A model generated the notes under the pieces. The model ran no database searches and was not told where the DNA came from. It saw only the letters and a list, made by a program, of their open reading frames with translations. 10,139 nucleotides of DNA from UHGV virus genome UHGV-0107762. One strand, given 5' to 3'. Shown here one piece after another: positions 50 through 6,363 of the stretch. The first letter of the stretch is position 1, and every line of letters begins with the position of its first letter. This DNA comes from a virus. The translations under genes were made by a program, and so were the position numbers.

Positions 50-241
50 TTATTTTCCGCAAGCAGGGCAGACGTTTGCATCACCAAATTGCATTGTAGT
101 GCTTTTATTCACACTAAAACTTTCGAATCCTTCACGTAAGGATTTTTTTTCACCATTAAAAAGATATGTTGTAAATTCTTTTTTCTCCGCATCAGTCAAT
201 TGAAGCCAGAGAGCTTTGACTTGATCTACTTTATAACTCAT
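50..241 (-). CDS. Small hypothetical protein (63 aa) with C-terminal CPAC motif; downstream gene of a two-gene operon
   Basis: Internal ATG at 241 of the 50..283 ORF is preceded by a strong SD (AAGGAG, 6-nt spacer) that overlaps the TAA stop of the upstream gene (253-255), suggesting translational coupling. No homolog recognised. Confidence 0.45.
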   Translation of the reverse strand: MSYKVDQVKALWLQLTDAEKKEFTTYLFNGEKKSLREGFESFSVNKSTTMQFGDANVCPACGK

Positions 242-252
242 TTGTTTCTCCT

Positions 253-834
253 TTATTTCACGAGATTGCCACAATTTGTGCAACCTTTCCGCTTGTTAAA
301 TTTAGTCGGTATTTTATTGCAACGTACGCATTCTTTATTTTTCTTTACCAGAATGTCGAACATAATCCGTTTCTTATCATTATTGCTAACATATTTTTCA
401 TCTTCCTTGGCATTGAAGTCATCTTTTGATTTTATCACTGAAAACAAATGGTTAGCGGGTTGCTGGTTGCCTGTCTTTGATTTAAACATGCTCGACAGTT
501 CGCCATACAAATCAGTTAGGAGTTTATTGAAAGAGTATGATTCCAGATATCGAGATAAATTTTCATCAGTCTTCATGACCAGTGTGTATAAATTAGAAAG
601 CAAGACTATCACTGATAATATCCCTGTGCCCCAAACTAAAAAATCAAAATATTTGGAGCTGTGATCAACCGATGCGTATCCTCCAACTAGGACAGGGAGG
701 GCAAATGATAGATATTGGTTTATTTTTAAAAGTCGTTCGCTTTTTTTGATTTTAGTTTTTAAGTAGTCAGCTGTTCCCTCTGCGTAAAATTTCCTGAGGT
801 CCATTTCTTCATTCGGTTGCATACTCATCTTCAC
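253..834 (-). CDS. Hypothetical 2-TM membrane protein with C-terminal 4-Cys zinc-ribbon-like motif (CVRC...CTNC)
   Basis: 193-aa ORF: N-terminal amphipathic region, two hydrophobic helices (LSFALPVLVGGYASV and LVWGTGILSVIVLLSNLYTLV) separated by a short loop, then a Lys-rich tail with CxxC-x13-CxxC. Visibly AT-rich. Start is uncertain (GTG 834, ATG 828 or ATG 822; SD AAAGGTG lies just upstream). Confidence 0.55.
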   Translation of the reverse strand: MKMSMQPNEEMDLRKFYAEGTADYLKTKIKKSERLLKINQYLSFALPVLVGGYASVDHSSKYFDFLVWGTGILSVIVLLSNLYTLVMKTDENLSRYLESYSFNKLLTDLYGELSSMFKSKTGNQQPANHLFSVIKSKDDFNAKEDEKYVSNNDKKRIMFDILVKKNKECVRCNKIPTKFNKRKGCTNCGNLVK

Positions 835-900
835 CTTTCACAATATCAAACTAGCGCGGGCTGAAATTATAAAAAACCTGTAAATTCAAGTGATTGACAT

Positions 901-1323
901 TCACCAATAATATGAATTCCTTCTGTGCCACCAATAAAGCAGACCGTATCCGACGATAAGAATCCCGAAGAACATCAGAGACATTCCCCAGCCAGTTCCA
1001 TACCACGAAACCATATCATCGAAAACCAGCCCACCCGTTTCACGAACTCCGGCAGCTTCCTTAAGAATTGGCTTGAATATCGGAATCAGAAGGGCGATCG
1101 CCAGTGGAGCACCCCAGCGAACAAGACCAGTTTCCATTTTGATACCGAAAAAGATCCCCGCACCGACAACAAGCAGCCAGACTATCAGGCCAGGCGCAGT
1201 TTCCAGTGCTGTTTGCCATTCAACATCGAAAGTTTTCATTAGCCAGGCTACAACAGCCAGGCAGAAAGCAAATACGCCTACAACAACCAGTTCAACGCCG
1301 CTTGTTCCGTTATTTCTACTCAT
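901..1323 (-). CDS. Hypothetical small integral membrane protein (about 4 TM helices)
   Basis: 140-aa ORF with four hydrophobic stretches (LVVVGVFAFCLAVVAWL, GLIVWLLVVGAGIFFGI, GAPLAIALLIPIF, GMSLMFFGILIVGYGLLYWW). SD-like AGGA sits 8 nt upstream of ATG 1323. The overlapping + strand ORFs (925..1242, 1073..1363) look non-coding by composition. Confidence 0.55.
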   Translation of the reverse strand: MSRNNGTSGVELVVVGVFAFCLAVVAWLMKTFDVEWQTALETAPGLIVWLLVVGAGIFFGIKMETGLVRWGAPLAIALLIPIFKPILKEAAGVRETGGLVFDDMVSWYGTGWGMSLMFFGILIVGYGLLYWWHRRNSYYW

Positions 1324-1361
1324 CCTTTTGATCCTTTGTTACTGTTCAAAATTCGCACAAT

Positions 1362-1394
1362 AAAAAACGTGCAGTGTTGGTAATACTGCACGTT
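1362..1394 (-). terminator. Putative rho-independent terminator for the minus-strand 60-aa gene
   Basis: Perfect inverted repeat AACGTGCAGT / ACTGCACGTT (1366-1375 / 1385-1394) with a 9-nt loop. On the minus strand it is followed by a run of six T (complement of the A-run at 1362-1367). Lies 18 nt downstream of the stop of ORF 1412..1594. Confidence 0.5.
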
Positions 1395-1411
1395 TGTACC
1401 ATTCGTGGTAC

Positions 1412-1594
1412 TTAATCCTTTTGTTTGGCAGACATGAGATCTTCTGCTGCATCTTTAGAGTAGTTATCAATCAGATAACCTAAAATCTCTGTCCATGTAA
1501 TTGTTTTTCCTAGTTTTACACTGGCATTTATAGCCAGTCGTTCTAGTTTCATTTTTCTTTCTTCCGTCACGTTATAAGTCGTGCGCTTTGCCAT
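1412..1594 (-). CDS. Putative ribbon-helix-helix (CopG/Arc/MetJ-like) transcriptional regulator, candidate phage repressor
   Basis: 60-aa ORF MAKRTTYNVTEERKMKLERLAINASVKLGKTITWTEILGYLIDNY. The N-terminal beta-strand with alternating residues, helix, G-x-T turn and second helix follow the RHH pattern (compared with CopG from memory). Transcribed divergently from gII, analogous to rstR/rstA in CTXphi. Confidence 0.5.
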   Translation of the reverse strand: MAKRTTYNVTEERKMKLERLAINASVKLGKTITWTEILGYLIDNYSKDAAEDLMSAKQKD

Positions 1595-1620: not shown

Positions 1621-1723
1621 TGAAGTGAGTATACATGCTCATGAACTCATATCATCCAATCCTCTTGAACTCACTAGCTCACTGGTGTAATGTTAAAACA
1701 CTAATGAACTACTGAACTCATGT
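1621..1723. promoter_or_regulatory. Candidate operator/promoter region between the divergent regulator and gII: repeated TGAACT(C/A) motifs plus a putative sigma70 promoter
   Basis: TGAACTCA at 1642-1649, 1666-1673 and 1713-1720, and TGAACTA at 1704-1710. AGTGAGT (1624-1630) is the inverted copy of ACTCACT (1669-1675). Possible -35 TTGAAC (1665-1670) and -10 TAATGT (1688-1693) with a 17-nt spacer, so one repeat overlaps the -35. Confidence 0.4.
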
Positions 1724-1763
1724 GTTAGTAAGTCGTCATTTTTGCAATTTTGAGGATTTATTC

Positions 1764-2816
1764 GTGATCGATTGGCTTACCGGGATTTTCCCTTGCACAC
1801 ACAAACCGCTTCCGGCGGGGAGTGTTGTCAGCGTTGATGCTGACGGTGCAATTGAGTGGGAAACCGTTAAGCGACTGACTGTTCGCGGTTCGCATGAAGC
1901 AACGATGAAAGTACGATCGATAGGATCTAATGGCGAAGGTAAAGCGACACATTTGTACATTGATGGTAATCCTTCCAAGTTTCTGCAGGGGCATTCTGTT
2001 GTTGGGTCGGATGATATACAAGGGCTCATGTTGACGGTCTATGCCAGGATTTTATCCTTATTGAATATTCCTCATGATTTAGCGTCTTATAAAGCCGTTA
2101 TGGCAGGTCAGTATAAAATTTCACGTATTGACATTAATTACATGTATTCATTATCTACGCTGGAAAATGTCAGATCATGGCTTTATGCCGCCGAATTTAA
2201 AGCTAAAACACGCCATGGTCGCGCATGTGGGAAAGGCGGTACAGTTTATTTAGGTAAAAACTCCCGTCGATGGAGTCTGAAATTTTATTCAAAATATGAT
2301 GAACACGTTTCTGGTAAAAAAGGGCACCAGATAGCCGAAGAGTTTGTACGAGCCGGGTTACTGGACTGGACGAAAGATAAATTACGTATTGAATTAACAT
2401 TAAGAACAACTGAGCTTATTGATTTAAATTTAACGCTTGGCGCTAACTGGAATATGAAAACACCACGTCAATTATTCTCTGAATATGTAGGGAGAATAGA
2501 AATGAATCAGAATGCTATTTTAAGTGATGAAAAAATAACGAAACTGCCAAGAAAAATACAGTCAACTTATTTACTTTGGAAACAAGGGGCTAACATGAAA
2601 GAAATGTTACCTCATAACACTTTTTATCGCCATAGAAGAGAATTGCTTTCGTTCGGTATCGATATTAATTTCTATTGTGATTCACCAGACTCTAATAACG
2701 TTGTTCCGCTAATAAGAACGCTGGAAGCCAAGCCAGCGGAAATCCCCTTATGGATTTATGAGAAAGGTTTTATTTTCGATTACAACCGTATTTCGCACGC
2801 CAGTAGCTGGCATTAA
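1764..2816 (+). CDS. gII: Replication initiation protein pII (rolling-circle nickase) of an Ff-like filamentous phage
   Basis: Translation shares blocks with M13 pII recalled from memory: N-terminal MID..., KFLQGHSVVGSDD vs KVLQGHNVFGTTD, KISRID vs TISRID, NNVVPL identical. Preferred start is GTG 1764 (SD GAGGA 7 nt upstream, gives MIDWL... like M13 MIDML...); the track ORF starts at an in-frame GTG 1722. About 350 aa, shorter than M13 pII. Confidence 0.9.
   Translation: MIDWLTGIFPCTHKPLPAGSVVSVDADGAIEWETVKRLTVRGSHEATMKVRSIGSNGEGKATHLYIDGNPSKFLQGHSVVGSDDIQGLMLTVYARILSLLNIPHDLASYKAVMAGQYKISRIDINYMYSLSTLENVRSWLYAAEFKAKTRHGRACGKGGTVYLGKNSRRWSLKFYSKYDEHVSGKKGHQIAEEFVRAGLLDWTKDKLRIELTLRTTELIDLNLTLGANWNMKTPRQLFSEYVGRIEMNQNAILSDEKITKLPRKIQSTYLLWKQGANMKEMLPHNTFYRHRRELLSFGIDINFYCDSPDSNNVVPLIRTLEAKPAEIPLWIYEKGFIFDYNRISHASSWH
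2502..2816 (+). CDS. gX: pX, in-frame internal restart within gII (replication regulator)
   Basis: In-frame ATG at 2502 preceded by GGGAGA. The product begins MNQNAILSDEKI..., matching the position and start of M13 pX (MNIYDD...). 104 aa. Confidence 0.6.
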   Translation: MNQNAILSDEKITKLPRKIQSTYLLWKQGANMKEMLPHNTFYRHRRELLSFGIDINFYCDSPDSNNVVPLIRTLEAKPAEIPLWIYEKGFIFDYNRISHASSWH

Positions 2817-2827
2817 AGGAAAGTAAT

Positions 2828-3145
2828 ATGTCTAATTATGGTCTTTTCGTTAAGGGTAAAATGTTGGGAGCCCGCCAACGTAATAAAGTTAATGGTCAGG
2901 GCTATTATAATGAAATTGGTATTGGCCTTGAAATACCTGATGGTTTTGGTGGTACAAAGCAGGATCAAATTATTATTCGAGTTTCTCAGGCTCTCGTTAA
3001 CGCAGGTCTAATGAACCAGGCGAATGCTTTCATTGGGAAATTAGTTCAAATTCCTGTCTATGTCCGTGCGTGGTCAATGGAGGGTAGGGAAGGTGTAACT
3101 TATAATGTTGCTTCCGATGGTGGCATCGCAGAGATCAAAGGTTAA
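2828..3145 (+). CDS. Protein in the gV position (presumed ssDNA-binding protein), sequence not recognisably Ff/IKe gV-like
   Basis: 105-aa ORF directly after gII with SD AAGGA upstream of ATG 2828, and directly before gVII. Gly-rich, no similarity to M13 or IKe pV as recalled. Function is inferred from position only. Confidence 0.55.
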   Translation: MSNYGLFVKGKMLGARQRNKVNGQGYYNEIGIGLEIPDGFGGTKQDQIIIRVSQALVNAGLMNQANAFIGKLVQIPVYVRAWSMEGREGVTYNVASDGGIAEIKG

Positions 3146-3348: not shown

Positions 3349-3591
3349 ATGAAAATTCTGTCTACTGTTAAATATAAAATTGCTCTGGCTTCAACTGCGC
3401 TTTTTATTTCTGCAAGTTCTTTTGCGGCTGAAGGCGCTACAGGTGGTACTGATTATGCAGGTCAGGCAATGGATGCTTTGTTGACTCAGGCAAATGATCT
3501 CATTGGTAAAGTATGGCCTGTTGTTGTTGCTGTGGTTGGCGCTGGGCTTGCCATTCGTATTTTCAAAAAATTCTCTTCAAAAGCGGTTTGA
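3349..3591 (+). CDS. gVIII: Major coat protein pVIII precursor
   Basis: 80-aa ORF with signal peptide ending SFA/AEG (M13 has SFAAEG), an acidic N-terminal segment, a hydrophobic core and a basic C-terminus [12 protein letters not shown] (M13 IKLFKKFTSKAS; IKe-like as recalled). SD GGAG upstream. Confidence 0.92.
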
Positions 3592-3601
3592 ATTTCACTC
3601 A

Positions 3602-3624
3602 GGGGCACTCGTTGCCCCTTTATT
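3602..3624 (+). terminator. Rho-independent terminator after gVIII
   Basis: GC-rich hairpin GGGGCA-ctcgt-TGCCCC (3602-3618) followed by TTTATT. Ff phages have their main intrinsic terminator at this same position. Confidence 0.7.
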
Positions 3625-3637
3625 AAAGCGGGTTACT

Positions 3638-4927
3638 ATGAGAAGGAAAATATTAATTCTTTCCGCTGTCCTCATTTCTCCTTTTTCACATGCTGAGTCA
3701 TGGGAAAGCATTACTAAATCCACTTATCAAAGTTCTGCCTATGCTGAAAGTAAGCAAATAACCAATCAGGATGGCTCTAAGATAACGGTTTACTATATTG
3801 ATGCTGCTATGCAGGCCTCCGCTTGTCAGGGTGCTAAATCCAGTGCTCAGAGTGTATTTACTCGGATTAAACCAACTTATGAGGGTATCTGGCCTGATTC
3901 TGAATTCCGTCTTGTTTTTACTGGCGATTGTACTTACAGCGATTCACCAGGGCAGAAGGATAAATATTGGTCTTTAACGGCTTATATTGTTGGTAATATT
4001 CAGCGTTCTGTTCCTGATGAAAAACCTACTGACCCGACACCAGAAGAAATTTGTGAAGCGAAGCCGCCAGAAGAAGGTGTATTTAATAATGTTGATTCAT
4101 ATGATGGTGGTCGCTATATCTACTATAACGGCTGTGAATATGAGGCTACTGGTGTCATTGTTTGTCAGGGTGATGGTACTGTTTGCGCTGCAACATGGAA
4201 GCCTACAGGTGCTGTAGCTGACCCCTCTGATAAACCCTCAACCCCCCAAAATGGTGGTGGTGAGTCTGGCGGTGGTGAGTCCGGCGGTGGTGAGTCCGGT
4301 GGTGGTGAGTCCGGTGGTGGTGAGTCTGGCGGTGGTGAGTCCGGTGGCGGTAGTTCTGGCGGTAGTTCTGGCGGTAGTTCTGGCGGTGGCTCTAGTGGTT
4401 CCAGTCTTTCTAAAGGTGATATTCAGTCTGCGATCGAAGGTGCTTCACCCAAAATAGCCAGCGATATTCATGATAAATTAACGGAGAAAGACACTTCATC
4501 AGATGATAAAAAAAATGCCGATGAACAAACCAGGAATAATATAAATCGTCTTGACGATTCCATTAACAATCTTACGCGGGGGGCTGGCCGTTTTGCTGAC
4601 CCTTCAGGTGGTGATTCTCGTTATGGAAAGGGCGACTCTGAATTAGATGGCGCTTCTACTTTAGCTGATTCTGAATTGGGAATTGAAAAGGATTCTCACG
4701 GTGCTTTATGGGAAGCATTTTTAAATAAAGGTGCTATGCTGCCTAATTTACCCAATGGTAACGGCTGCTCTGATTTTATTATTTTTCCCGGAGAGGTTTA
4801 TCAGATTGATATTGGTTGCGATAAATTACTGACTATTAAAGATGTTCTTTCATGGGTTTTTTATTGCCTTACGTTCTGGTATGTCTTTACTTCTTTAACT
4901 TCATTGCTTCGCAAAGGGGGTGAGTGA
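3638..4927 (+). CDS. gIII: Attachment/adsorption protein pIII
   Basis: In-frame ATG 3638 gives signal peptide [46 protein letters not shown] matches the M13 pIII TolA-binding N1 motif GCLWNATGVVVCTGDETQCYGTWVPIG. A (GGGES)n/(GGSS)n linker follows, and the C-terminus (...[23 protein letters not shown]...[17 protein letters not shown]) parallels the M13 pIII C-terminal anchor. The track ORF 3494..4927 is a 5' over-extension. Confidence 0.92.
4253..4406 (+). repeat. Tandem in-frame codon repeat encoding the Gly/Ser/Glu linker of pIII
   Basis: Six copies of the 15-bp unit GGTGGTGGTGAGTCY (GGGES), then three copies of GGCGGTAGTTCT (GGSS) and a degenerate tail. Confidence 0.85.
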
Positions 4928-5268
4928 TGCCTTTATTATTAGGTATTCCTGCATTGTTGCGTTTTCTTATTGGTCTTGTTCCTTTGTTTATTGGCTATGT
5001 GGCGAGTTTTTTAGCTCGACTTGCTACCAGAACAGGATTAATCGCCTTTGCATTGGTCGCATTAATTACAACAACTGTTACGCTTTTAATGCAGTACCTT
5101 GCTGAGGTCATGTATAACGGTTTACCTGCTGATTTCTCCCATTTAATGGCGTCTGTATTGCCTGACCATTTTCAGGCGTGTGTTAACGTTATTATGGTTA
5201 CTCGTATCAGTGTTTTTGTTTTCGATTTAAAACAAAAATTTCTTGATTATGCAAACAGGGTGATTTAA
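4927..5268 (+). CDS. gVI: Minor coat protein pVI
   Basis: [17 protein letters not shown]... matches M13 pVI MPVLLGIPLLLRFLGFL...; also VFDLKQK vs IFDVKQK. ATG 4927 overlaps the gIII TGA (TGATG). The track ORF begins one codon earlier at GTG 4924. Confidence 0.9.
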   Translation: MPLLLGIPALLRFLIGLVPLFIGYVASFLARLATRTGLIAFALVALITTTVTLLMQYLAEVMYNGLPADFSHLMASVLPDHFQACVNVIMVTRISVFVFDLKQKFLDYANRVI

Positions 5269-6363
5269 ATGGCGGTTTATGTAGTAACAGGCAAATTAGG
5301 CTCAGGCAAGACACTTGTTAGTGTTTCCAGAATACAGGAAAGACTTGCTAAGGGTTGTCCTGTTGCCACTAATCTTGATCTTAAATTGCATAATATGCCT
5401 ATGGTTGGGCGTTATGCGAAAAAAACGCGCGTTATTCGCATTCCTGACAAGCCTTCATTAAATGATTTACTTGCTATTGGTATTGGGAATACATCTTACG
5501 ATGAATCCCGTAATGGCCTCCTTGTACTTGATGAATGTGGTACTTGGTTTAATTCCCGCTCATGGGGTGATAAAGACAGACAACCTGTTATTGACTGGTT
5601 TTTACATGCCAGAAAATTAGGCTGGGATATTATATTTTTGATTCAGGATATTTCGATAATGGATAAGCAAGCTCGTCTGGCGCTTGCTGAGCATGTTGTT
5701 TATTGTCGCCGTTCAGATAAATTAAACATTCCTTTTGTTGGCTCCATTATGAATTTGGTTTCAGGGGCGAGATTTTCTTTACCAAAGGTACACTTTGGCA
5801 TTGTCAAATATGGTGATAATGTTAATTCAATCACTGTTGATAAATGGATATATACAGGAAAATCTCTTTATTCTGCTTACAATACCAAACAAGCGTTCAC
5901 AGATAATTATCCTCATGGCGCATTTTCGCTTTTGCCACCATTTATCACGCACGGTCAATTTTCTGTTCACAGAGGATTTAATTATTATATGCGCCTCACT
6001 AAAATTTATTTTCGCAAATCGAACCGTCTTATATTAATGCTTTCTTTTTTGGCGCTGGGGCTTGCGTTTGGTTTCTGGCTCCAGTCTGGAAAGAATGTTG
6101 ATGAAATCTCAGCTATTAAATCTGCTTATGCTGAACAGGCGAGGGCGGTAACGCCTGATTCGTCCAGTGACTTACCCCGACTTTCTATTAATTCTTTTTC
6201 ACAACTTGGCTTTGACGTTTCCGTTACGTTTGTTGATGCAAAAGGTATGAAATATCAGTATTTTGATTTGATTAAAGATGGTTATTCCGTTGATATTAAA
6301 GATGCCTGTCGTGTTGTTATTAGAAAAGGCCGTTATTTACAGACTGTTACCTGTCAGGAGTAA
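5269..6363 (+). CDS. gI: Assembly protein pI (Zot-like morphogenesis ATPase)
   Basis: MAVYVVTGKLGSGKTLVSV (Walker A) is near-identical to M13 pI MAVYFVTGKLGSGKTLVSV. Further long matches include LLVLDECGTWFNSRSW, DWFLHARKLGWDIIFL and ALAEHVVYCRR. ATG follows the gVI stop directly. Confidence 0.93.
   Translation: MAVYVVTGKLGSGKTLVSVSRIQERLAKGCPVATNLDLKLHNMPMVGRYAKKTRVIRIPDKPSLNDLLAIGIGNTSYDESRNGLLVLDECGTWFNSRSWGDKDRQPVIDWFLHARKLGWDIIFLIQDISIMDKQARLALAEHVVYCRRSDKLNIPFVGSIMNLVSGARFSLPKVHFGIVKYGDNVNSITVDKWIYTGKSLYSAYNTKQAFTDNYPHGAFSLLPPFITHGQFSVHRGFNYYMRLTKIYFRKSNRLILMLSFLALGLAFGFWLQSGKNVDEISAIKSAYAEQARAVTPDSSSDLPRLSINSFSQLGFDVSVTFVDAKGMKYQYFDLIKDGYSVDIKDACRVVIRKGRYLQTVTCQE
5989..6363 (+). CDS. 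gXI: pXI, in-frame internal restart within gI
   Basis: In-frame ATG at codon 241 of gI gives MRLTKIYFRKSNRL..., which parallels M13 pXI MKLTKIYLKKFSRVL. 124 aa with one predicted TM segment. Confidence 0.55.
   Translation: MRLTKIYFRKSNRLILMLSFLALGLAFGFWLQSGKNVDEISAIKSAYAEQARAVTPDSSSDLPRLSINSFSQLGFDVSVTFVDAKGMKYQYFDLIKDGYSVDIKDACRVVIRKGRYLQTVTCQE

Follow-up and report, generated by a model that had tools for sequence, protein, structure and literature searches.

The gene at positions 3638 to 4927 of the 10,139-nucleotide stretch analyzed here (the window) is very probably an ordinary gene III, carried by an IKe-like filamentous prophage that is integrated at dif and belongs to the already described UPΦ group. 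The gene encodes the attachment protein pIII (also g3p). The original prediction described the layout of pIII correctly but was wrong to read its N-terminal domain as unrecognized. That domain is already known, as a curated Pfam family built around the solved pilus-binding domain of IKe.

Gene III and its prophage

Gene III is intact, running from an ATG at 3638 to a TGA that ends at 4927. A longer mechanical open reading frame (ORF) starting at 3494 was rejected because it overlaps gene VIII and because the RefSeq copies, which carry the name "attachment protein," and the IKe alignment both begin at the equivalent of 3638. The position of gene III between gene VIII and gene VI in the inovirus morphogenesis module is that of IKe-type phages. 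Moreover, the one-base overlap between the gene III stop and the gene VI start is common to the window, the RefSeq copies and IKe. A scan for consensus terminators missed the hairpin between gene VIII and gene III because its T-tail is weak, but direct folding gave a modest hairpin, and a stem-loop/terminator is annotated at the equivalent position in IKe.

The genes of the window are ordered gII-gV-gVII-gIX-gVIII-gIII-gVI-gI-gIV, with two small ORFs and then an exact dif site beyond gIV (Table 1). Over about 8.4 kb, the window is 99% identical to prophages in Escherichia coli UM146 and many other strains, and the matching prophages, that of UM146 among them, adjoin hipBA in the dif region and are often in tandem. 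The UPΦ viruses integrate at dif, are about 50% identical to IKe and I2-2, and carry two novel genes, h1/h2, after gene IV and reverse-strand accessory ORFs on the upstream side of gene II (Shapiro & Putonti 2020, PMC7307601). Their gene III was originally identified through blastp searches that used the genes of IKe and I2-2, and their g3p differs in the number of "GGGES" repeats between viruses (PMC7307601). The window has the dif site, the two small genes after gene IV, the reverse-strand accessory ORFs and the GGGES repeat variation, and its gene III, IKe-like and containing GGGES repeats, agrees with the UPΦ description. An identity with CUS-1/YpfΦ, suggested by the dif location and the UM146 match, was dropped, as the published description fits UPΦ and sets YpfΦ apart (PMC7307601).

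The replication module (1722-3145; gene II and gene V) is of a different type from that of IKe, a phage that also differs from the present one in that it does not integrate. UPΦ and YpfΦ have only genes II and V in common, and the UPΦ replication module is more than 85% identical to that of YpfΦ (PMC7307601). The phage is thus a mosaic, YpfΦ-like in its replication module and IKe-like in its structural module. At the nucleotide level, the only similarity of the window to IKe and the PEar phages (about 80% over ~190 nt) lies at 6418-6606, in the N-terminal part of gene IV. A nucleotide search of the phage-record collection returned no member of the UPΦ group and just this stretch of gene IV as a match to IKe and PEar.

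The two ends of the window hold genes of other kinds. One of the minus-strand ORFs at the left end (253-834) is a TIGR04402 "mobilome CxxCx(11)CxxC protein." Left-end accessory genes differ between UPΦ copies, and the cargo of this slot varies among otherwise 99%-identical prophages: UM146 carries the ECs_2282 zinc-binding protein, 1368KP a PD-(D/E)XK nuclease plus DUF6953, and a circular Salmonella copy (L006) a Doc-family toxin. Beyond dif (8432-10139), a 507-aa ORF at 8566-10089 is named "site-specific integrase" in matching RefSeq records, and NCBIfam gives it only a far sub-threshold recombinase match. This ORF is part of a different element, found on chromosomes and plasmids in 162 of 5,426 E. 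coli genomes and next to a UPΦ-type prophage in only two.

Table 1. Features of the window and of pIII, in window coordinates
Feature	Position	Strand	Basis or detail
Accessory ORFs upstream of gene II	50-1594	-	
Gene II	1722/1764-2816	+	PF05144 and PF05155
Gene V	2828-3145	+	PF17426 "Putative_G5P"
Small ORFs in gene VII/IX position	between gene V and gene VIII	+	
Gene VIII	3349-3591	+	PF19199
Intergenic hairpin, gene VIII to gene III	3601-3619	+	GC-rich stem of seven pairs, -12.5 kcal/mol, z = -2.2
Gene III (attachment protein pIII/g3p)	3638-4927	+	429 aa plus stop; ORF and translation; homology to IKe, I2-2 and PEar
Signal peptide, aa 1-19 (predicted cleavage site)	3638-3694	+	column-for-column alignment with the annotated 19-aa IKe gene III signal peptide
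N-terminal IKe-type pilus-binding domain, aa 20-128, Cys63 and Cys98	3695-4021	+	PF21443, 4EO0, AlphaFold2, Foldseek
Region of greatest divergence in the pilus-binding domain (predicted beta-hairpins), aa 30-56	3725-3805	+	19% identity to IKe
Short Pro-rich connector KPTDPTPE, aa 129-136	4022-4045	+	sequence; interdomain dip in pLDDT to about 73-75
TolA-binding (N1-like) domain, aa 137-195, Cys 139/166/176/183	4046-4222	+	PF05357, 4EO1, Foldseek
Single Gly/Ser-rich linker, aa 196-256, six GGGES copies followed by GGSS-type repeats	4223-4405	+	TRF; pLDDT about 31
C-terminal domain, aa 257-429	4406-4924	+	8B3O alignment; 52% identical to IKe
Hydrophobic anchor in C-terminal domain, aa ~403-424	4844-4909	+	most hydrophobic 19-mer is aa 403-421
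Gene VI	4927-5268	+	PF17537/DUF5455; ATG overlaps gene III stop (TGATG)
Gene I	5269-6363	+	Zot
Gene IV (secretin)	ends 7636	+	
Two small ORFs after gene IV (h1/h2 position)	7706-8014 and 8132-8365	+	
E. coli dif site	8404-8431		exact, 28 nt; right prophage end

Domain architecture of pIII

The N-terminal domain of pIII has the IKe fold represented by PDB entry 4EO0 and Pfam family PF21443. Residues 22 to 125 match PF21443 (G3P, pilus binding domain) with an E value of 2.3e-25 and a score of 89 bits, against a gathering score of 27 bits, and cover profile positions 2 to 105 of 105. In a sequence search of the PDB, residues 20 to 128 match 4EO0, the pilus-binding domain of IKe, with an E value of 3.2e-26 and 47% identity over 109 residues. 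An AlphaFold2 model of pIII, built on 32 family members, has a pLDDT of about 90 in the pilus-binding domain and about 85 to 90 in the TolA-binding domain; pLDDT is below 50 over the signal peptide, the linker is disordered, and the C-terminal domain is of low confidence. When compared with the PDB by Foldseek, the modeled pilus-binding domain superposed on 4EO0 with a TM score of 0.94 and an rmsd of 1.1 Å at 47% identity, and no PDB structure other than 4EO0 matched the first domain, Ff N2 included. Both the profile and the model therefore contradict the claim that the first roughly 130 residues are not recognizable. There is next to no chance that these residues make up a novel receptor-binding domain without known relatives. 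In favor of that reading, no NCBIfam model matches pIII, and a nucleotide search of the phage collection with gene III finds nothing, but the Pfam and PDB matches, the predicted fold, and the Pfam annotation already on nearly all of the 61 homologues argue against it.

The pilus-binding domain is unevenly conserved. Its residues 30 to 56 diverge most from IKe, whereas the other blocks of the domain are 45 to 70% identical, and the same residues are the least conserved block of the family. By alignment, they are a candidate specificity region.

The TolA-binding domain comes second. PF05357 matches residues 135 to 176, and residues 130 to 195 match 4EO1, the TolA-binding domain of IKe (E = 3.7e-25). 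The modeled domain superposes on 4EO1 with a TM score of 0.88, an rmsd of 1.1 Å and 73% identity by Foldseek, and the N1 structures of fd and IF1 come after 4EO1 in the list. The 27-residue N1-like motif occupies residues 165 to 191 (nt 4130-4210), inside this domain, and aligns with the N1 domain of fd/f1 (8B3O, 1TOL, 2G3P) and with the TolA-binding domain of IKe. As originally claimed, the motif lies just before the Gly-rich linker rather than at the N terminus. The proposed IKe-like order, in which the N1-like domain follows a different domain, also holds and is identical to that of IKe by alignment and by PDB matches; the four cysteines of the second domain are conserved, as in IKe-type proteins.

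The sole Gly-rich stretch of pIII spans residues ~201 to 260 (residues 209 to 263 in IKe) and separates the N-terminal domains from the C-terminal domain, as in other IKe-type proteins. The single long linker of the original prediction is thus real but is no peculiarity, as the pIII proteins of IKe, I2-2 and PEar6 also have exactly one. At the DNA level, the linker consists of tandem repeats (nt 4253-4387), with 7.2 copies of a 15-nt period and 3.6 copies of a 12-nt period as called by TRF. On the far side of the linker, residues 363 to 426 align with residues 340 to 403 of f1 pIII in the cryo-EM tip structure 8B3O. Residues 361 to 429 are 67% identical to IKe, and pIII thus ends in an Ff/IKe-like C-terminal domain and anchor.

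Comparison with known proteins places pIII as a full-length, colinear homologue of the IKe, I2-2 and PEar proteins. By tblastn, the pIII proteins of PEar1-6, IKe and I2-2 match over their full length at about 52 to 54% identity, whereas the Ff phages match only from residue 139 onward. A four-way alignment of pIII with IKe, I2-2 and PEar6 is colinear from the signal peptide to the C terminus, with nine cysteines and one linker common to all. IKe G3P (NP_040576), which is about 53% identical overall, has the same order of signal peptide, pilus-binding domain, TolA-binding domain, one Gly-rich linker and C-terminal anchor. Region by region, identity to IKe is 46.8% in the pilus-binding domain, 71.6% in the TolA-binding domain, 53% in the linker and 52% in the C-terminal domain. 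For scale, the pilus-binding domains of IKe and I2-2 are 91% identical, and those of IKe and PEar6 are 54% identical. The proteins of I2-2 and of the Erwinia phages PEar1-6 (genus Lineavirus) share the architecture, with 45 to 47% identity to the window in the pilus-binding domain and 69 to 73% in the TolA-binding domain. They are closer to IKe than to the window, however, as their C-terminal domains are 90 to 93% identical to that of IKe and 52 to 54% identical to that of the window.

The g3p proteins of Ff (fd/f1/M13) and IF1 are built differently. Their N1 (TolA-binding) and C-terminal domains are homologous to those of the window (8B3O, 1TOL, 2G3P, 2X9A), but the order is N1, linker, N2 (pilus-binding), second linker and C-terminal domain. 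In the window, the N1-like domain is second, nothing matches N2, and there is one linker. Thus, IKe-type pIII is not a permutation of the same two domains, and instead, a different pilus-binding domain is placed in front.

Entry pathway and receptor

By homology of fold and architecture, pIII most likely follows the two-step pathway of IKe. In IKe, the receptor is the N pilus; the first domain of p3 binds the pilus, and the second binds TolA (PMC6431161). IKe attaches to the tip of the N-pilus, and no cross-link to TraC was seen there (bioRxiv 10.1101/2022.07.29.501992). For the window pIII, the N-terminal domain would first attach to a pilus tip, probably that of a conjugative type IV secretion pilus. 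The TolA-binding domain would then engage the C-terminal domain of TolA, and the C-terminal domain of pIII would drive entry. In cells producing the phage, this domain would also terminate assembly, cap the virion, and anchor pIII in the virion tip and the inner membrane. We infer TolA-C binding by residues 137 to 195 from their 72% identity to the IKe domain and from the conserved fold. The Pro-rich connector, with its lower model confidence, would fit two independently folding domains, and the IKe domains are said to fold independently in the study behind 4EO0 and 4EO1.

Which receptor pIII binds is a separate matter. The analysis supports the idea that the N-terminal domain would set the primary receptor. 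That domain is not near-identical to that of a pIII with a known receptor, as it is only 47% identical to the pilus-binding domains of IKe and I2-2, and the receptor is therefore not assignable from sequence. Given this figure, and the still lower identity to IKe of residues 30 to 56, the receptor may differ from that of IKe and need not be a conjugative pilus. One possible reading, given somewhat less than even odds, is that the IKe fold has been kept while the hypervariable residues 30 to 56 retarget the domain beyond N/I2 pili, to another conjugative pilus or a chromosomal structure. By the same reading, the pIII family diversifies its host range by swapping or rapidly evolving the pilus-binding domain, which is the most variable folded domain across the family. 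Two mosaic homologues serve as examples: one (P0035) has 32% identity in the pilus-binding domain and 88% in the TolA-binding domain, and the other (P0027) has 69% in the TolA-binding domain and 84 to 100% in the other domains.

Alternatively, pIII might bind what IKe and I2-2 bind, namely the tips of IncN/IncI2-type conjugative pili, and share the IKe host range. The fold and architecture are those of IKe, and the UPΦ authors noted IncI plasmids in all of their lysogens and suggested IncI pili as the receptor (PMC7307601). The binding domain is 47% identical to its IKe counterpart, however, whereas the IKe and I2-2 domains are nearly the same, and it contains the hypervariable stretch. Moreover, the only published attempts at infecting new hosts, made with UPΦ901, failed; neither JE-1, the usual host of I2-2, nor the other IncI-bearing strains gave plaques or integration (PMC7307601). 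We consider a shared receptor unlikely.

A target other than a conjugative pilus is improbable to a similar degree. It might be a chromosomal fimbria, a type IV pilus or an outer-membrane component, or entry might proceed through TolA and be mainly pilus independent. Many lineages of E. coli and of Salmonella share identical folded domains, the failed infections were of strains bearing conjugative plasmids (PMC7307601), and the PEar phages of Erwinia amylovora, which are among the closest host-tested homologues, have no reported plasmid pilus receptor. A wide host distribution is equally expected of a receptor encoded on broad-host-range plasmids, however, and every characterized member of the domain family (IKe and I2-2) depends on conjugative pili. 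The probability that remains after these two alternatives have each taken their small share goes to a conjugative pilus of a type other than N/I2.

Distribution and variation of the pIII family

A full-length protein search returned 61 homologues across the Enterobacterales, nearly all of which carry PF21443 plus PF05357. A search with the N-terminal domain alone gave only 12 fragmentary matches, and it was the full-length query that recovered the family. The hosts are E. coli, Salmonella, Citrobacter, Yersinia enterocolitica, Izhakiella, Pantoea, Providencia and Arsenophonus. The folded domains of the window pIII are 100% identical to the representatives of two RefSeq clusters, P0013, with 165 member sequences, and P0014, with 682, and differ from them in the linker alone. 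The exact window sequence was not found in the protein collection because the number of linker repeats differs.

The linker repeats are length polymorphic among otherwise identical genes, with GGGES in five, six or nine copies and proteins of 405 to 440 residues (P0013, P0014 and P0015). The g3p proteins of UPΦ901 and other UPΦ viruses belong to the same group as that of the window, which has six copies where the RefSeq clusters have five and nine. Variation in repeat number is consistent with replication slippage.

The family is also mosaic, and either the pilus-binding or the TolA-binding domain is swapped in some of the homologues P0027, P0035, P0064 and P0072. The last of these, an E. coli ORF, fuses residues 1 to 155 of pIII to residues 87 to 452 of pIV and is probably a deletion derivative. 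In the chromosome of E. coli EC5502 (NZ_CP092647.1; H52), sixteen separate places match the window, which suggests a large tandem array or many dispersed prophage copies.

When 5,426 complete genomes of E. coli were searched at 95% nucleotide identity or more, 48 carried the N-terminal half of gene III, at a median of two copies each. In Salmonella, the same gene set is found on a circular record of 7,938 bp, consistent with a replicative form. It is very unlikely that gene III is a relic in a defective prophage that no longer works in infection. Infection of new hosts was not obtained in the laboratory, a premature stop was reported in one assembly (PMC7307601), and the pIII::pIV fusion is another disrupted copy found elsewhere. 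The ORF of the window is intact, however, and its folded domains are unchanged across the two large RefSeq clusters. Moreover, the E. coli genomes with gene III usually carry it as tandem copies, the circular form exists in Salmonella, and the release of UPΦ virions was shown by PCR of DNase-treated filtrates (PMC7307601). We conclude that gene III is very probably the ordinary attachment gene of its prophage.

As stated in the original prediction, the finding matters little, since the domain is covered by a Pfam family and a crystal structure, and a 2020 paper describes the phage group with its g3p (PMC7307601). Roughly 1% of complete E. coli genomes, among them those of extra-intestinal pathogenic strains, carry UPΦ-type prophages, which also occur in Salmonella and Citrobacter. 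The question of the receptor is of moderate specialist interest, and the IKe pilus-binding fold, together with a localized hypervariable stretch, narrows the search for that receptor to pilus tips.
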